Source: a virus (taxonomy: Duplodnaviria > Heunggongvirae > Uroviricota > Caudoviricetes). Taken from it: 8,147 bases of DNA. Below are positions 1 through 8,147 of this stretch, piece by piece. The position numbers were made by a program, and so were the translations under genes. The notes under the pieces are model-generated. The model had not been told where the DNA came from. It made no database searches and saw only the letters and a program-made list of their open reading frames with translations. The first letter of the stretch is position 1, and every line of letters begins with the position of its first letter. The stretch covers positions 1 to 8,147 of IMG/VR virus record IMGVR_UViG_2529292834_000016; one strand, written 5' to 3'.

Positions 1-276
1 TCGCAAACGACGAAAACTACGCTTTAGCAGCTTAATAACCTGCTTAGAGCCCTCTCTCCCTAGCCTCCGCTCTTAGGACGGGGATCAAGAGAGGTCAAAC
101 CCAAAAGAGATCGCGTGGAAGCCCTGCCTGGGGTTGAAGCGTTAAAACTTAATCAGGCTAGTTTGTTAGTGGCGTGTCCGTCCGCAGCTGGCAAGCGAAT
201 GTAAAGACTGACTAAGCATGTAGTACCGAGGATGTAGGAATTTCGGACGCGGGTTCAACTCCCGCCAGCTCCACCA
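1..276 (+). ncRNA. ssrA: tmRNA (SsrA), 3' ~276 nt; the 5' ~87 nt lie upstream of the window
   Basis: Sequence matches enterobacterial tmRNA as I recall it, from the tag-encoding region through the tRNA-like 3' domain, ending GGTTCAACTCCCGCCAGCTCCACCA at 252-276. Far longer than a typical att-core duplication, so this is the intact gene copy. Confidence 0.95.
3..35 (+). other. ssrA: tmRNA tag-peptide reading frame, ANDENYALAA plus TAA
   Basis: GCA AAC GAC GAA AAC TAC GCT TTA GCA GCT TAA read directly at 3-35; this is the canonical SsrA degradation tag. Confidence 0.9.
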
Positions 277-393: not shown

Positions 394-612
394 TCAGAAA
401 CTCATGTGGCCTTGACCACCTTTTCCAGGATGTGGCGGCGCAGAAGAAATTAGATTCGGTTTTATAATGTGCCGTACAAACGTTTCATGAGTAACGAACG
501 TACAGCCACAATTTATATTTTGGCACTGGTTGTAACGTTCTTTTGTCGTAGCTGATACCTGAAAGCTGCTTCTGGTATGTGCTGCATGACCGCACTCTGG
601 ACAGTTCATCAT
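394..612 (-). CDS. ogr: Ogr/Delta-family zinc-finger late transcription activator, 72 aa from the internal Met
   Basis: MMNCPECGHAAH...CQNINC carries the CX2CX22CX4C spacing of P2 Ogr and resembles it closely. SD-like GGTGGGA sits ~8 nt upstream of ATG 610-612. The six-frame ORF's start at 660 adds 16 unlikely residues. Position after gene D matches P2. Confidence 0.85.
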   Translation of the reverse strand: MMNCPECGHAAHTRSSFQVSATTKERYNQCQNINCGCTFVTHETFVRHIIKPNLISSAPPHPGKGGQGHMSF

Positions 613-648
613 CGCTGTTATCCCACCACTCTTGCCGTAGTCGCAATA

Positions 649-676
649 ATGATACAGCATTATTCAATATTGAGAA
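649..676 (-). promoter_or_regulatory. Candidate sigma70 promoter for ogr
   Basis: On the minus strand, TTCTCA (676-671), 16-nt spacer, TATCAT (654-649), about 35 nt upstream of the ogr ATG in an AT-rich D-ogr spacer. Hexamer match only. Confidence 0.3.
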
Positions 677-680
677 CCAA

Positions 681-1781
681 TTATTCAATTTCAAGATCAT
701 CAATCTTTACTTCAAGCTCCATGCTGGTCGTAAATCCATTATCCGGGCTGACAGAATGCGTCAGGGTGGTAATGGTCCATTCTGCATCATCAATCGGCTG
801 CTTAAACCCCGTCACCTTCACCGGCATTTCCGTATAGAGATCAGCCCGCCCCTCAGCCAGCTGCAGGGAAAATGAAGCAACCCCACGCTGCAGACGTTCC
901 CACTGCATTTTTGCTGCGCGCTCTGCATTGCTCCGATTGGCATAGGTACGATTAAGAACCAGCACGTTTTCATCCGTTCCCACCAGATAATCGCCCTGTT
1001 TTGCTTCCGGCTCTTTGGGTGTGGTGGTTTTCTTTCGACGGCGCTTAACACTGGTTGTCTCTTTTTTCCTGGGTTCACGCGTATGCAACCAGCTGGCAAT
1101 AACACCGGTATAGGCACCACGATCAGCAAGGGTGAACCGATGACCGTCACCGGCTTTGCGTGTGATGGTGATAACCGGCAGCGGCTTGCCGCTTGCCGTT
1201 CTTCCCTGTCCCTGCCGGATAAACAGCAGATTCCCGTCTTTAACGGAAGCAATCGCCCCATACTGTCTCGCCAGTTTCATCAGAAAACTTGCATCGCTTT
1301 CATTGGTCTGGTCCAGATGATCCAGTGCCTTATCCGTCAGGTCTTTACCCAGCGCCACTTTGAGGTTATGCCGGGCGGCGATTTCCTTTACCACCTCCCC
1401 CACCGTTGTCTGATGCCATGATTTTTCGCGCCGTGTATTCAGGGTCTCACGGAAATCTGCACTACGCGCCCGGATGGTCAGTCGGTCAGGGGCACCGCTG
1501 TGTTCAATTTCATCCACGGTAAAAGCCCCTTTAGGGAAAAGCGGATGGCCTTTCCAGCCCAGCGCAAGCTGAATCACTGCCCCACGTCGCGGCAGGGCGA
1601 TCAGCCCGTCGGCATCGTCCAGCTCCAGATCAAGCTGGTCCGCTTCAAAGCCCCGGTTATCCGTCAGCGTCAGACTCATCAGGCGGGTATCCAGCACGGT
1701 CGTCACGTCCTTACCTTCAATGACGATACTGAAAGCCGGGCTTTTGCTGTTCAGGTTCAGGAGATCAGAATTAACGTTCAC
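681..1781 (-). CDS. D: P2 gpD-like tail protein (late control gene D family), 366 aa
   Basis: Length and sequence are consistent with the P2 gpD family and the gene sits between U and ogr. Starts with GTG at 1779-1781, preceded by GGAGGA, and overlaps the U stop as GTGA. Confidence 0.88.
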   Translation of the reverse strand: MNVNSDLLNLNSKSPAFSIVIEGKDVTTVLDTRLMSLTLTDNRGFEADQLDLELDDADGLIALPRRGAVIQLALGWKGHPLFPKGAFTVDEIEHSGAPDRLTIRARSADFRETLNTRREKSWHQTTVGEVVKEIAARHNLKVALGKDLTDKALDHLDQTNESDASFLMKLARQYGAIASVKDGNLLFIRQGQGRTASGKPLPVITITRKAGDGHRFTLADRGAYTGVIASWLHTREPRKKETTSVKRRRKKTTTPKEPEAKQGDYLVGTDENVLVLNRTYANRSNAERAAKMQWERLQRGVASFSLQLAEGRADLYTEMPVKVTGFKQPIDDAEWTITTLTHSVSPDNGFTTSMELEVKIDDLEIE

Positions 1782-2263
1782 TGCAGCAATCCTCCAACCG
1801 TGTTTTTAATCCCCCCAATCGCAGAGGCAGCAGAGTCCTGCAGGTTGCTGAGCTGGTCACTCAGGCTCCCGAACATGTCAGACAGCGACTCATCAACCCG
1901 TTTGAGGGTGATCGTAAACTCAATGCGCCGGGGCATTCCACTGGCAAAAAACTCCGTCTTTGTCTGGCTCAGACTCTCAATAACAAACATGCCGTAAATG
2001 GTTCCGCTGCCTTCAATCAAAGGCCAGGCTTTGCCCTGCTCTGCCATCAACTCCAGCGCCAGCAATGACAGCCTGCCTCCGGTCACTTCCGGCAGCAGAA
2101 CCCCGGACAGTGTCAGTGAATCATTATCCGGGCCAAGAAACTGCGTTGACGGGCGGCGGTTCACCCGGCTGTTGGCTGCATGTCGCCAGCTGCGCTGATA
2201 CTGCAGCTCCTGATAAGGGACAGTGCGCAACATAAATACATATAAACCCAGCACCATCATCAT
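1778..2263 (-). CDS. U: P2 gpU-like tail protein, ~160 aa
   Basis: Size and position between T and D match P2 gpU. Start ATG overlaps the T stop (ATGA at 2260-2263), with a G-rich SD inside the 3' end of T. Confidence 0.8.
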   Translation of the reverse strand: MMMVLGLYVFMLRTVPYQELQYQRSWRHAANSRVNRRPSTQFLGPDNDSLTLSGVLLPEVTGGRLSLLALELMAEQGKAWPLIEGSGTIYGMFVIESLSQTKTEFFASGMPRRIEFTITLKRVDESLSDMFGSLSDQLSNLQDSAASAIGGIKNTVGGLLQ

Positions 2264-5200
2264 GATTCATACCCCCCCTGATCGCTGAAATTGCTGCGCG
2301 CTTTTGCCCTGGCCCTGCGTTCCCGCTCGTCAAGCTGGCGTGCCACTTCACGGGCAATATCCTGCGCACTCTGTCCCGGCTGCGCGACGATATGAATGGG
2401 CGCATTTATCTCATAACGAATAACTGACGGCGGGCTGTCAGCCTTCACTGGCTGCGTCTGGTATGCCCTCGCAGGCAGACTGAACGGATGAAGCGGAGCC
2501 ACTTCTGCAGGTGTCGCAGCTACCCCCATCACGCCAGCAACGACAGAGGCCAGCGCAGCAGTACGCCGCCTGCTGGTGACATTTGCCGGTCCGTTCACAA
2601 TTTCAGGGCCATTTTCTCCAACAATGCCAAACTGCCCGCGTGGAATGATCCCCCCCGTGTCGTACATCCCTGCGTAAGCCGGGAACCCGCCTGGCGGCAG
2701 CACCACTTTGCCGTCACTGTTCACTGTGGCGGATTGCTGCTGCGTGACCTGCGCAGGCAGTTTCGCCTTTGCCGCCTCCTTACTGACAATACCGAGCTTT
2801 TCCAGTAGCCATGACACACCGGATTTAAGAGACTCCAGCGGGTGCATCACCCTATTCAGACCTTCCGCAAGCGCCTCACCAAACCGGCGCCCCATTGCAG
2901 CTGCGCTGTTCAGTTCTTCGGAAGTGGATTTAACCGGCGTAAGTAAATCACTGAACCAGCCCCACAAGGCCTGCACCCTGTCACCAATCCACTGGAACAT
3001 GGGCCTGAGCGGCTCAAAGGCGGCGCTGATGGGCGCTGCAGCGGCTTTGAACCCTTCCACCACGCCCCCCAGAAATGCACTGATGGGCTGCCAGTATTTC
3101 CACACAACCAGCGCCACACCAGCCAGCGCAGCCACAACCAGCCCTATCGGACTGAGCAGCGCACCCAGCATACCGGAAAGACCAGACAGCGCGCCGCGAA
3201 GTAATGCCAGCGGACCAGAAACAAGAAAACACAATACGCCACCGACAGCTGTCAGCCCACCCCGCAACGCCGCCAGCGGGTTCATCACCATACCGATAAC
3301 ATTACGGATACCTGACATACCGACACGGAACACGGCAAGCGGAGCACCTGCCACCGTTTTCAGTGCATTACCCGCTATTCCAACTGAGCGACGCAGGGAA
3401 TTAAGCGGGGCACTCAGCAACCCGACACTACCACCGGATGACGCCATACCCCGACGCAACAGGGAAAGTGGCGCACCTGCCAGCCATGACAGGGCACCGC
3501 CAGTACGTGTTACCGCTGCAGCAACGGAAGGTAATGTTTTTACACCCAGCACAGACAGGCCAAACCGAATCACCGCAATCGGCCCCAGCACAGCAGCCAC
3601 TGCCACGGCAAGTGTACCCAGCCCGACAGTGACAGCCGCCGTAGCCGCCGCCACTTTCATCAGCGTGCCAGCCAGCACGGGGTTCTGCTCCACCCAGCGA
3701 CGCAGCGCCCCGGTCACGCCCTTAACCATGCCCATAATATCCATCAGCGGCTGACGCAACGTTTCCCCCAGACTGCTGAAAGCGTTCTGCGCGCCAGTCT
3801 TAACCAGCAACCACTGCGCAGACAATGAATCCTTGTTAATGTCGGATTCTTTCTGCATGGAGCCATTAGCACCACTGCCTGATGTGAGTTTCAGCTGACG
3901 CTGCAGCTCCGGCAGGTTGTTAGCCAGCTTTGCCGCATCATCGCCAAACTCTTTACCAAAAATCATTGTCATGGCTGACAGGCGTTTATCCTGCGGCAGA
4001 TTGTTGACCTTCTCCAGAACCCGCTGAATGGTGCCCATGGCATCGGTGGTCATCTGCTTTTCAATCTCCGCAGGATTGAGTTTCAGCAGGTTCATACCTT
4101 CAAAGAAGCGTTTACTTTGCATGGTGGCAATGGACAGTTCACGCACCATGGCATTAGAGGCACTGGCGGCAATTTCCGGGGCAGCCCCAAGAGAAAGGAA
4201 TGTTGAACCCAGCGCAGCAGCCTTTCGGAAGTCAAGGCGGTCAGCCACGCCCCCCATACGCTGCAGGACGTTGATAATGTCCCCACCCTTTGACATAGCG
4301 TTATCGTCCAGGTAGTTCAGCGCATCGCCCAGTTGTTCAATATTGCGCGTCGGAACTTTATAGAGCTGCGCGATTTTCCCCAATCCTTCCGCCAGCTCAT
4401 CGGCGGGCAGCTCAAAGGCCGTTGCAGCTTTTGCCGCCGTGGATGCAAAGGCCAGCAGGTCACGTTTCTGGTCCTCAAAGGGATCGTCCTGGTCAGTCAC
4501 GCCCATGCGCGCGCCGCCTTCAACCAGCGCGGCATAGTCTATAGCACCATTCTCCATCGGCAGTTGCTCACTGGCAGCCTTAATGGCATCCTGCATGTCA
4601 TAAAACTGTTTTGTACGGTTGCCGTTATCGTCACGAAGCCCGTTTACCTGCTTTGCCACGCCTTTCATGGCATCTTCCATACTGGCATAGCTCTTAACTG
4701 CAGCCATAACCGGCGCGCCCATTGCCAGCCCCGCTGCCGTGGTGGTGGCCCCGGCTCCTGCAATGCGATCCCTTACCTCAAGACTCCTGGAGTATGCCGC
4801 ACGGGCGGCGTGCATTTTTCGCTGTTGCTCCCCGACACGTCGTAACCTTGCTTCCTGTTCAGAAAGCTGCCTGTTATAACGCATTGTTTCACGGGTAATG
4901 CGGGCCGTCGCGCTGGCGCCATCACTGGCTGAAATACCGGCACGATAAAGCTCTGCACGCACAAGTGCAGTCTGCTGCTGCAGCTTTTTCTGCCGTTCTT
5001 CCAGACGCTGAACAGCCAGCTGTTGACGGCCCAAAGCAACAACCTGCCGTTGAGAAGGCGGCCCCATCGCACCCAGCTCATGACTGAGTAAATTTGCACG
5101 CTGGCGGGCATAGTTCAGCCGGTCGCCCAGTTTCTGATTTTCTGCCTGTAGCTTTCGGAAGCTGTCCAGACTGCTCCCGGCCTGATCAAGCTGCTTTATT

Positions 5201-5325
5201 GCATCGCGGGATTTTTTGACAGCAGCAGCCAGCTCTTTTGAGCTGGCCTGCGCGGATCGAAATGGGCGGGTGAGCTTGTCAACCGCGTTCAGAATCACCT
5301 GCAGACGCAGGCTATTGTCACTCAT
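2260..5325 (-). CDS. T: Tail tape measure protein (gpT-like), 1021 aa
   Basis: Long ORF with an N-terminal coiled-coil-like Q/R/A-rich region, a central Gly/Ala-rich hydrophobic core and a C-terminal GG..IP.G.FGIVGENGPEIV motif typical of tape measures; sits immediately after the E/E' chaperone pair. Confidence 0.9.
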   Translation of the reverse strand: MSDNSLRLQVILNAVDKLTRPFRSAQASSKELAAAVKKSRDAIKQLDQAGSSLDSFRKLQAENQKLGDRLNYARQRANLLSHELGAMGPPSQRQVVALGRQQLAVQRLEERQKKLQQQTALVRAELYRAGISASDGASATARITRETMRYNRQLSEQEARLRRVGEQQRKMHAARAAYSRSLEVRDRIAGAGATTTAAGLAMGAPVMAAVKSYASMEDAMKGVAKQVNGLRDDNGNRTKQFYDMQDAIKAASEQLPMENGAIDYAALVEGGARMGVTDQDDPFEDQKRDLLAFASTAAKAATAFELPADELAEGLGKIAQLYKVPTRNIEQLGDALNYLDDNAMSKGGDIINVLQRMGGVADRLDFRKAAALGSTFLSLGAAPEIAASASNAMVRELSIATMQSKRFFEGMNLLKLNPAEIEKQMTTDAMGTIQRVLEKVNNLPQDKRLSAMTMIFGKEFGDDAAKLANNLPELQRQLKLTSGSGANGSMQKESDINKDSLSAQWLLVKTGAQNAFSSLGETLRQPLMDIMGMVKGVTGALRRWVEQNPVLAGTLMKVAAATAAVTVGLGTLAVAVAAVLGPIAVIRFGLSVLGVKTLPSVAAAVTRTGGALSWLAGAPLSLLRRGMASSGGSVGLLSAPLNSLRRSVGIAGNALKTVAGAPLAVFRVGMSGIRNVIGMVMNPLAALRGGLTAVGGVLCFLVSGPLALLRGALSGLSGMLGALLSPIGLVVAALAGVALVVWKYWQPISAFLGGVVEGFKAAAAPISAAFEPLRPMFQWIGDRVQALWGWFSDLLTPVKSTSEELNSAAAMGRRFGEALAEGLNRVMHPLESLKSGVSWLLEKLGIVSKEAAKAKLPAQVTQQQSATVNSDGKVVLPPGGFPAYAGMYDTGGIIPRGQFGIVGENGPEIVNGPANVTSRRRTAALASVVAGVMGVAATPAEVAPLHPFSLPARAYQTQPVKADSPPSVIRYEINAPIHIVAQPGQSAQDIAREVARQLDERERRARAKARSNFSDQGGYES

Positions 5326-5754
5326 CGCTGGCCCCGCTTCTCTGAATCGCTTTGTGCCGCCACTCCAGCACCTCAGTCAGCGGCATAACGTCAGTGATGG
5401 ACGGCGACCAGTGAAAAATGGTGGCGATATCCGCCACCAGGTCATCAATCGTCAGGCTGTCGGTAAACCGGCAAGCACCGACTTCTTCAACAAAAAAGTC
5501 ACCACCTCGACCGACAGCGCGGTGAGATCGGCGGGGTCCAGTTCAGCCATTTCCTGTGCGGTCAGCGTCGGGGTGGAAATACGCGGGATCACTGTCATCA
5601 TGGCCCCCACGTCCATATCCATAATGGCCTGCAGGCGGGTGCCGCGCAGCGCGCCGGACTGCGGCTTACGCAGCACAATTTCGGTGATTTGGGTTTTACC
5701 GCGCATGATGGGCGTATCCAGTTGTACGGTTTTTTCAGTCAGCTTGTCGTTCAT
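5318..5754 (-). CDS. E': gpE+E' fusion made by programmed -1 frameshift, ~145 aa
   Basis: After a -1 shift at T TTT TTG the frame stays open for 57 codons (VEEVGACRFTDSLTIDDLVADIATIFHWSPSITDVMPLTEVLEWRHKAIQRSGASDE) and stops at TGA 5318-5320, overlapping codons 2-3 of T. Confidence 0.65.
5452..5754 (-). CDS. E: Tail assembly chaperone gpE (zero-frame product), 100 aa
   Basis: Small ORF directly upstream of the tape measure gene; AGGAAA lies upstream of the ATG at 5752-5754; contains a slippery heptamer near its 3' end. Confidence 0.8.
   Translation of the reverse strand: MNDKLTEKTVQLDTPIMRGKTQITEIVLRKPQSGALRGTRLQAIMDMDVGAMMTVIPRISTPTLTAQEMAELDPADLTALSVEVVTFLLKKSVLAGLPTA
5491..5497 (-). other. 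Slippery heptamer T_TTT_TTG (X_XXY_YYZ), programmed -1 frameshift site
   Basis: Minus-strand codons ACT TTT TTG, i.e. Thr86-Phe87-Leu88 of E, place TTTTTTG in the canonical frame. Confidence 0.7.
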
Positions 5755-5808: not shown

Positions 5809-6324
5809 TCAGAGGCCAAGGGCGTTACGGTGCGCTTCCATCAGGTCCACACCGTCAACGATTTCAATCATGTTGACCACATCAACCTCATAGAGCACCT
5901 CGCCGTTAATGGTCAGCTTCGCGTAACTGTTGGTGCTGCTGACTTTGGTGGCGCTACTTTCTCCAGTTTTCCACTCGCCGGAATCCACCTCTTTATGACG
6001 CCCCCGCACAACCAGCTCAACGGCCTGCACTTCGCCGGTATCGTCACGCTGAATAGAGCCGGTAAAACGCAACTGGATACCGTCCACCGTGGCAGCTCCC
6101 ATCTGTTTGAATAACAGCAGTTCGGTGCCGCCGATTGAAAATTCCGTGTCCAGTGCGCCGTCATCCAGCCCCATATCCACATCCACCGCGCCCGGCATAC
6201 CGCCGCCGCGATACTTCTCAAACTTGCGGGTGAATTTCGGCAGGGTCAGGGACTCAACGATCCCCTGCCAGTTGTTCCCGTCGTTGAACAGGTTCAGATG
6301 TTTTAACTTGCGTGGTAATGCCAT
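5809..6324 (-). CDS. FII: Major tail tube protein (gpFII-like), 171 aa
   Basis: N-terminus MALPRKLKHLNLF... and length match P2 FII; AAGGGGGA precedes the ATG; lies 9 nt downstream of the sheath gene. Confidence 0.9.
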   Translation of the reverse strand: MALPRKLKHLNLFNDGNNWQGIVESLTLPKFTRKFEKYRGGGMPGAVDVDMGLDDGALDTEFSIGGTELLLFKQMGAATVDGIQLRFTGSIQRDDTGEVQAVELVVRGRHKEVDSGEWKTGESSATKVSSTNSYAKLTINGEVLYEVDVVNMIEIVDGVDLMEAHRNALGL

Positions 6325-6333
6325 GTATCCCCC

Positions 6334-7506
6334 TTATGCACTGACACGGCTGGCAAAATCGACCAGGTAGCGATCGGTGATGCGCTGGCGCAGCATCAGA
6401 TTTTCAAGCGGCGGCACAGGTGTGTAGTCGTAGTCGATGGTGAGTTTCCCGGCTTTCAGGGAGTCTTTATCGTTCACTGACTCATCCAGCCAGCAGTCTG
6501 CCCCGATGAGGTATCCCTGATTCACCAGGCTGCGTAATTTGGCGCGGATACCTTCGATAATGTCGCGGGCCAGTGACGGATTCAGTGGCTTATCCACCGC
6601 CCACATATGCCCCTCTGCAATCGTGTCAGCCAGCACCTGCGCCGTGCGGGTGTAGTTCTCAAACGCAAACAATGGATCGTCACTGAGGCAGCGGGAACCC
6701 CAGAAGCGGAACCCGTCTTTACAGATCAGCGTGGTGACGTCGTTCTGGTTCAGCAGTCCCGCATCCGTTGCCGGGTCCTGCAGATCCCAGAACACATCAG
6801 CGGAAATACCGGTGACGCCATTCACACCCACGTTGGACAGGGTTTTATGCCAACCGGTCTGTTCGTCGATTTTGGCGCGCAAACCGAGCGCACGTGCAGA
6901 GGCGTAAGCCGTCGCATCGGCTTTTAGCACGGTGTCAAAGTTGATGAAATCAGGCCAGATCAGCATCCCTTCTCGCTGGCTGAAATTGTCCCGGTAAGCA
7001 ATGGCTTCCTCCAGCGTCTTGCAGCCATAGGCAGACAGGTAGGCAAACCCGCGCAGGCTCTGCGCAATACTCATCAGCTCAGTGGCTACCGCCTGCGTGT
7101 CGTGCCCCGGCACACCGAGAATGCGCGGATTAACTTTCAGCTGCGACTGCGCAGAAAGCAGCGCTTTCATCCCCGTTTTTTTACCGTCGGACGTGACGCC
7201 ACCGATAATATTGGAGGTGGTTTCCGCTTCGGTTTCGCCCTGCGCCACGCGCACAACAACCGTTACGGGCTTTGACTGGTCGGCAATCGCATCAAGCGAA
7301 CGGGCCAGCGTGCCGGACTCGCCTGCTTTACCGCTGGCCTCCAGCACATCCGTCAGCAGAACCGGCTTATTGAGAGGGAATACGGACGCATCAGCATCAT
7401 CGCCGGTGCAGACCATGCCCACGATAGCGGTGCTCACCGTGGTGATAGATCGGGTGCCCTCGTTGACTTCAACAACGCGCACCCCGTGGTGGTAATCCTG
7501 AGCCAT
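6334..7506 (-). CDS. FI: Contractile tail sheath protein (gpFI-like), 390 aa
   Basis: Strong similarity along its length to P2 FI as I recall it ([47 protein letters not shown]); AGGAGG lies 8 nt upstream of the ATG at 7504-7506. Confidence 0.93.
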
Positions 7507-7582
7507 AGCGGCGAACCTCCTGATTGGAATAGGCTTCGCCCTATGTTGTATTGATTACGTCACGCAGACAGCTGTGCGGCGT

Positions 7583-7600
7583 TGTCCTGTTAATCACACA
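7583..7600 (-). promoter_or_regulatory. Candidate Ogr-dependent late promoter element (TGT-N12-ACA dyad) for the FI operon
   Basis: TGTGTGATTAACAGGACA on the minus strand, centred ~85 bp upstream of the FI ATG, consistent with a -55 activator site plus a ~30-nt leader. No good -35 is present, as expected for activator-dependent P2 late promoters. Confidence 0.5.
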
Positions 7601-8147
7601 ATGTCGCAGGATATTTGCGGTATAACGTTGAGACACCCACATCAAAAATTAAAGCTACCCGCTGCCGTGTTTCACCTGCAGCAATTAACCTGCCTGCCTG
7701 CGCCCATTGTTCTGGCGTCAGTTTTGGTCTTCGCCCTCCGATCCTGCCTTTAGCTCTTGCGGCTTCCAGCCCCGCACGGGTTCGTTCCACTATCAGCTCG
7801 CGTTCCATCTCCGCCAGTGCCCCCATAACGTGAAAGAAAAACCGCCCCATCGGAGTACTGGTGTCTATGCTGTCAGTCAGACTGCGGAAATTAACCCCGC
7901 GCTGTCGGAGTTCTTCTATCAGGGTCACAAGGTGTCGCATGCTTCGCCCCAGCCTGTCGAGTTTCCATACAACCAGCGTGTCTCCCTCTGATAACGTCCT
8001 GAGCAACCTTTTTAGCCCTGGCCTGTCTGCTGTTTTTCCGCTCATTTTGTCCTCAAAAATTAGCTCACATCCTGAACGTTCCAGTGCATCACGCTGCAGC
8101 GCTGTGTTTTGCTCACTTGTTGATACGCGCACATAACCGACTAACAT
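7590..8147 (-). CDS. Serine-recombinase DNA invertase (Hin/Gin/Pin/Cin family), 185 aa, complete
   Basis: MLVGYVRVSTSEQ N-terminus with catalytic Ser, conserved GDTLVVWKLDRLGRS and SLTDSIDTSTPMGRFFFHVMGALAEMERELIVERT, and a C-terminal HTH (VGVSTLYRKY). The start codon is the last 3 nt of the window. Confidence 0.92.
   Translation of the reverse strand: MLVGYVRVSTSEQNTALQRDALERSGCELIFEDKMSGKTADRPGLKRLLRTLSEGDTLVVWKLDRLGRSMRHLVTLIEELRQRGVNFRSLTDSIDTSTPMGRFFFHVMGALAEMERELIVERTRAGLEAARAKGRIGGRRPKLTPEQWAQAGRLIAAGETRQRVALIFDVGVSTLYRKYPATLCD

Follow-up and report, generated by a model that had tools for sequence, protein, structure and literature searches.

A predicted programmed -1 frameshift joining E to E' in the tail chaperone gene of a Fels-2-like prophage that adjoins ssrA

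Phage lambda carries two overlapping ORFs (gpG/gpGT) between its major tail gene and its tape measure gene, and the same arrangement in the prophage DNA analysed here raises the question of whether its tail assembly chaperone gene, E, yields one protein or two. The tail-chaperone frameshift of lambda and long-tailed phages is said to have been described by Levin et al. in 1993 and by Xu, Hendrix & Duda in 2004, 2013 and 2014, and reportedly has been recognised widely since 2004; the E/E+E' frameshift of P2 is likewise reportedly the subject of work by Christie, Temple, Bartlett & Goodwin in 2002 (J Bacteriol 184:6522). We conclude, from comparison of sequences, that the present locus very probably makes E together with a minor E+E' product by programmed -1 ribosomal frameshifting, giving two tail chaperones.

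The window (the whole 8,147 nt stretch of DNA analysed) carries the late tail operon, FETUD, of a Peduoviridae prophage that is P2/Fels-2-like and adjoins ssrA. The tail operon lies on the minus strand throughout, from FI to ogr, and the features around E, with protein families assigned by Pfam, are as follows.

8147..7590, minus strand: serine DNA invertase gene
7506..6334, minus strand: FI, tail sheath
6324..5809, minus strand: FII, tail tube, directly upstream of E (PF04985 Phage_tube, 205.9 bits)
5325..2260, minus strand: T, tape measure, 1021 aa (PF10145 PhageMin_Tail)
2263..1778, minus strand: U (GpU)
1781..681, minus strand: D (GPD)
660..394, minus strand: ogr (Ogr/Delta zinc finger)
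1..276, plus strand: 3' part of the tmRNA gene ssrA (Rfam RF00023, 183 bits, model positions 91-374)

The gene T is annotated as gpT-like or as tape measure in the Fels-2, RE-2010 and P2 records. ARAGORN found neither a tRNA nor a tmRNA in the window, missing the latter because the edge of the window truncates ssrA. The ogr-bearing end of the prophage abuts ssrA, consistent with Fels-2-type integration at that gene. At the other end, the invertase gene is complete (185 aa, Resolvase and HTH_7 domains), has its start codon exactly at the window end, and lies directly upstream of the tail sheath gene, a position where Yersinia phage vB_YpM_MLG42 lacks it (blastn similarity ends at 7507); its presence suggests an invertible tail-fibre segment beyond the window. 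A TGT-N12-ACA dyad at 7583..7600, overlapping the invertase stop codon and centred ~85 nt upstream of the FI start, is positioned as the Ogr-dependent late promoter PF is in P2 and is a candidate for that promoter; the motif occurs 3 times in the window against 1.9 expected, a count that is not itself significant. Start and stop codons overlap as ATGA at T/U (2260..2263) and U/D (1778..1781), both on the minus strand, the usual arrangement for translational coupling in a tail operon.

Gene E, which lies between FII (tail tube) and T (tape measure), matches the chaperone family PF10109 Phage_TAC_7 over residues 9-88 (64.5 bits, cutoff 25) and is assigned to PHROG 103 'tail protein'. Its elements are arranged thus.

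5754..5452, minus strand: gene E, tail assembly chaperone, 0-frame ORF of 100 aa (Pfam PF10109 Phage_TAC_7)
5497..5491, minus strand: slippery heptamer T_TTT_TTG, putative site of the -1 shift, comprising the last base of Thr86, Phe87 and Leu88
5318..5491, minus strand: E' extension in the -1 frame, 57 codons (5491..5321) and a TGA stop (5320..5318)
5452..5490, minus strand: dual-coding overlap, holding the last 12 sense codons and the stop of E, and E' codons 1-13

The heptamer, with Phe87 at 5496..5494 and Leu88 at 5493..5491, is the only in-frame X_XXY_YYZ heptamer that a script run over gene E detects. A slip of -1 would make GTT, from 5491, the first codon read, joining residues 1-88 of E to the extension in a 145-aa E+E' fusion with the predicted junction peptide ...VVTFLVEEVG... 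(spanning stretch ...SVEVVTFLVEEVGACR...). The E' stop overlaps codon 2 (AGT) and codon 3 (GAC) of T, whose ATG is at 5325..5323, so that stop and start together read ATGAGTGAC. This is just the anatomy that a first-pass annotation, made from the letters alone, had proposed: T_TTT_TTG in the canonical frame at Phe87-Leu88, 57 open codons in the -1 frame, a TGA over codons 2-3 of T, and a fusion of 145 aa; each of these details is exact. Followed back from the heptamer, the -1 frame meets a stop 18 codons upstream, with several more besides, which leaves the -1 ORF without a long frame of its own. The extension matches PF06528 Phage_P2_GpE at fusion residues 107-142 (64.4 bits, cutoff 23) and is assigned to PHROG 1756 and 6416; neither fusion nor extension has a match in NCBIfam, and a PDB sequence search found no solved relative.

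On this reading of the locus, most ribosomes translating E would terminate at 5452 and release the 100-aa chaperone, while a minority, we infer, would move back by one base at T_TTT_TTG as both tRNAs, tRNA-Phe in the P site and tRNA-Leu in the A site, re-paired on UUU UUU. The slipped ribosomes would read 57 further codons in the -1 frame and end just inside T with the 145-aa product. Slippage would thus set a fixed ratio of two chaperones with a shared N-terminus, neither of which would be expected in the virion; in P2, the shift reportedly has a frequency of about 10%, a figure attributed to Christie et al. in 2002. If the lambda pair gpG/gpGT is a guide (review, PMC5009743), the E portion common to both products may coat the tape measure protein, and E' may recruit the tube protein. 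As in the lambda G/GT class, the second ORF here appears to have no start of its own and would be entered through a shift late in the first; the two systems differ in the slippery site (G_GGA_AAG in lambda, T_TTT_TTG in the window) and in the tail, which is non-contractile in lambda.

How much of this anatomy could arise with no function at all, as a chance heptamer followed by a chance open frame? Judged on the single sequence, the evidence is weakly significant and chance is not negligible: shuffling the codons of E yields an in-frame XXXYYYZ 23% of the time, and 57 open codons arise in 9% of shuffles of the E' stretch. The remaining in-frame heptamers in genes of the window open -1 frames of at most 39 codons. 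Because the single-sequence odds of chance are not negligible, the case rests on comparative evidence, and this evidence for the predicted frameshift is overwhelming.

The closest reference is P2, to whose E/E' the first-pass annotation had likened the locus as an instance of the conserved chaperone frameshift, a likeness that extends to heptamer, extension length and stop overlap. Aligned by BLASTP, the 145-aa fusion and the 142-aa P2 gpE+E' are 47% identical over 139 residues without a gap across the junction (E 1e-48), and the extension is 52.6% identical to those of P2 and L-413C (tblastn). We rebuilt the fusions of P2, L-413C, Fels-2, RE-2010, MLG42 and the window from DNA; in all six, TTTTTTG stands at the homologous Phe-Leu, the extension runs to 57 codons, and the stop overlaps T codons 2-3. 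In the P2 RefSeq record (NC_001895, P2p25/P2p26), E is accompanied by a joined E+E' CDS ('-1 frameshift; essential tail protein') and, at the same heptamer, by a 'site of -1 translational frameshift'; the L-413C record likewise carries a joined E+E' CDS, and the Fels-2 record states that the pair 'forms functional gpE+E' if translational slippage occurs'. In P2, a -1 shift at TTTTTTG gives a 91-aa E and a 142-aa E+E' (PMC3091744), and Christie et al. in 2002, cited in that paper, reportedly found that P2 makes the fusion by a -1 frameshift and needs it for tail assembly.

Gene order FII-E/E'-T is the same in P2 as in the window, as is the operon order FI-FII-E-T-U-D. The differences are small: P2 E has 91 aa and the window's E 100 aa, with three extra N-terminal residues in the latter; the 0-frame tail after the heptamer is 6 codons in P2 and 12 in the window; and E' stops with TAA in P2 and TGA in the window, the stop/T-start overlap of P2 reading ATGAGTAAC. 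Nearer relatives are Fels-2 (NC_010463; STM2699/STM2697.1), RE-2010, SEN8, SopEPhi and MLG42, with 90.8-99.2% DNA identity over the region. Over the E region itself, DNA identity is 99.2% to MLG42, 92% to Fels-2 and ~86% to many Klebsiella and E. coli P2-like phages, and the region is found at >=80% identity in 977/5426 complete E. coli genomes. The MLG42 fusion is identical to the window's and the Fels-2 extension 96.5% identical; apart from the missing invertase gene upstream of FI in MLG42, these Fels-2-like phages show no difference of substance from the window.

Conservation of the shifted frame reaches well beyond this clade. With the 57-aa extension alone as a tblastn query, 347 phage records were matched, spanning phages of Enterobacterales to those of Burkholderia, Pseudomonas, Vibrio and Mannheimia. 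Alignment of 24 distinct relatives without indels allowed a comparison by codon position. On the 5' side of the heptamer, it is mainly third positions of the E frame that vary (71/85, vs 24/86 and 13/86 at the others); 3' of the E stop, it is mainly those of the -1 frame (24/44, vs 9/43 at the first and 4/44 at the second); and in the dual-coding overlap only 7/36 sites vary, spread over all three positions. Third-position variation therefore moves by exactly -1 at the heptamer, demonstrating, at the level of codon positions, purifying selection on the -1 frame from that point onward. Together with the PF06528 match, this conservation refutes the reading by which heptamer and open frame are functionless coincidences, which we consider vanishingly improbable.

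In a scan of genomes, an in-frame T_TTT_TTN followed by a -1 ORF of 53-67 codons occurs at 67/67 complete loci, from Enterobacterales, Pasteurellaceae, Neisseriales and Burkholderiales; these -1 ORFs hold an ADIATIFHW...WR..A..RSG motif and usually stop a few bases inside T. Because the patterns used in that scan were partly E' peptides, loci were retrieved again with the 0-frame part of E alone, giving 80 viral loci in a close clade and 80 in a distant one. Site and extension are present in 80/80 loci of the close clade. Of the distant clade, 3/80 loci end at contig edges, and 77 are complete, of which all but L173 have both. Across all complete homologous loci analysed, the 157 viral ones found with E alone included, codons GGT/ACT-TTT-TTN are followed by a -1 ORF of 52-67 codons in every case except L173, an ambiguous base shortening the extension in L193. 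The exception, L173 (IMGVR_UViG_2823426463_000001, ~1420-1560), has a run of 5 T by which E and E' are fused in frame 0, a frame that is lost again further on; it probably reflects either an error in sequencing the homopolymer or decay of that prophage copy. The alternative heptamers GGGTTTT and GGGGGGC, which appeared along the way, are artefacts of taking the longest extension, as the codons read GGT-TTT-TTN every time.

A conserved E' might still be a small gene in its own right, a 39-aa peptide running from GTG 5437 to TGA 5318 with no frameshift, and PGAP and several depositors annotate exactly that ORF, with no joined CDS. In favour of this, the ADIA motif of 123/142 distinct homologues is immediately preceded by ATG or GTG. 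Against it, no Shine-Dalgarno sequence precedes GTG 5437 in the window, and 18/142 distinct E' sequences have no ATG, GTG or TTG at all between heptamer and conserved motif. Starting at the heptamer, and hence also in the 18 codons that precede the GTG, the -1 frame is moreover conserved and free of stops in 35/35 relatives: over the 17 codons after the heptamer it holds no stop in 35/35, frames 0 and +1 being stopped in 35/35, and mean identity from heptamer to ADIA is 61% in the -1 frame vs 50% in frame 0. Heptamer and phase are conserved universally, and Christie and colleagues are said to have found in 2002 that P2 E' is expressed only as an extension of E. A separately initiated E' is in our judgement very improbable, and a frameshift within E remains the preferred source of the product.

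Public records nonetheless make the stand-alone call, with GTG-initiated 39-aa ORFs annotated at the following places.

762-881 of locus L244 (E. coli E7476, NZ_CP035817)
4374-4493 of locus L001 (MLG42)
1874-1993 of locus L003 (RE-2010)

Labels on such ORFs include 'GpE family phage tail protein', 'tail assembly chaperone' and 'tail protein E''. The first-pass annotation had warned that simple ORF callers miss the E' product; this is so for the fusion, whereas the last 39 codons are usually called, as a stand-alone ORF started at GTG. The MLG42 record also gives its tape measure protein the name 'tail fiber assembly protein'.

The same fusion protein could also come about without any ribosomal slip, if RNA polymerase added one U on the T6 run in some mRNAs and so brought E' into frame. 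In every homologue the site is a run of six (sometimes seven) T, with no mixed X_XXY_YYZ variant found, so that the letters alone do not tell the two kinds of slippage apart, and a conserved 3' RNA stimulator, as set out below, was not found. Efficient bacterial transcriptional slippage usually needs ~8-9 A or T, however, and T6 is shorter. The T run also stands in the X_XXY_YYZ phase of the E frame at every one of ~220 loci, a phase for which polymerase has no need and which slippage of tandem tRNAs does require, and the P2 and lambda shifts are described as translational (PMC5009743, PMC3091744). We therefore regard transcriptional slippage as improbable, and ribosomal frameshifting as the mechanism that best fits the phase of the site.

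Conserved 3' stimulatory structure was sought by folding, RNAalifold and covariation and was not established. Two local hairpins are predicted in the window.

5451..5482, minus strand: predicted hairpin starting 8 nt 3' of the heptamer, possible clade-specific stimulator
5421..5441, minus strand: perfect 8-bp hairpin UGGUGGCG-GAUAU-CGCCACCA in the codons of the most conserved E' motif (VADIATI)

Folding of the 80 nt that follow the heptamer gives -30.5 kcal/mol (z = -3.97, 0/200 shuffles), whereas the same segment of P2 shows no hairpin (z = 0.09), in keeping with a report of no structure in P2 and Burkholderia P2-like phages (PMC3091744). Over 35 relatives, the pairs of the first hairpin are kept in 71% of cells with covariation no better than a slid control, and RNAalifold returned no consensus structure. 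This hairpin is a feature specific to the Fels-2-like clade and, as a stimulator, possible and unproven. The second, within the ADIATI codons, is absent from P2 and may be a by-product of codon choice.

Taken as a whole, the locus shows recoding of a textbook kind, in a phage lineage already known, and biologically nothing new, the P2 case dating from 2002 and the Fels-2 record noting it. Its practical value lies in annotation, since automated pipelines still split E' from E; a usable rule is to look for an ORF matching PF10109, then GGT/ACT-TTT-TTN, then a -1 ORF that matches PF06528 and ends at the tape measure start. It is also conceivable, although we think it unlikely, that the Fels-2-like clade, unlike P2, tunes its frameshift via the 5482..5451 hairpin, or that the shift is in part transcriptional slippage on the T6 run. 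Were the hairpin reading true, the ratio of E to E+E' would be set differently in closely related Peduoviridae.
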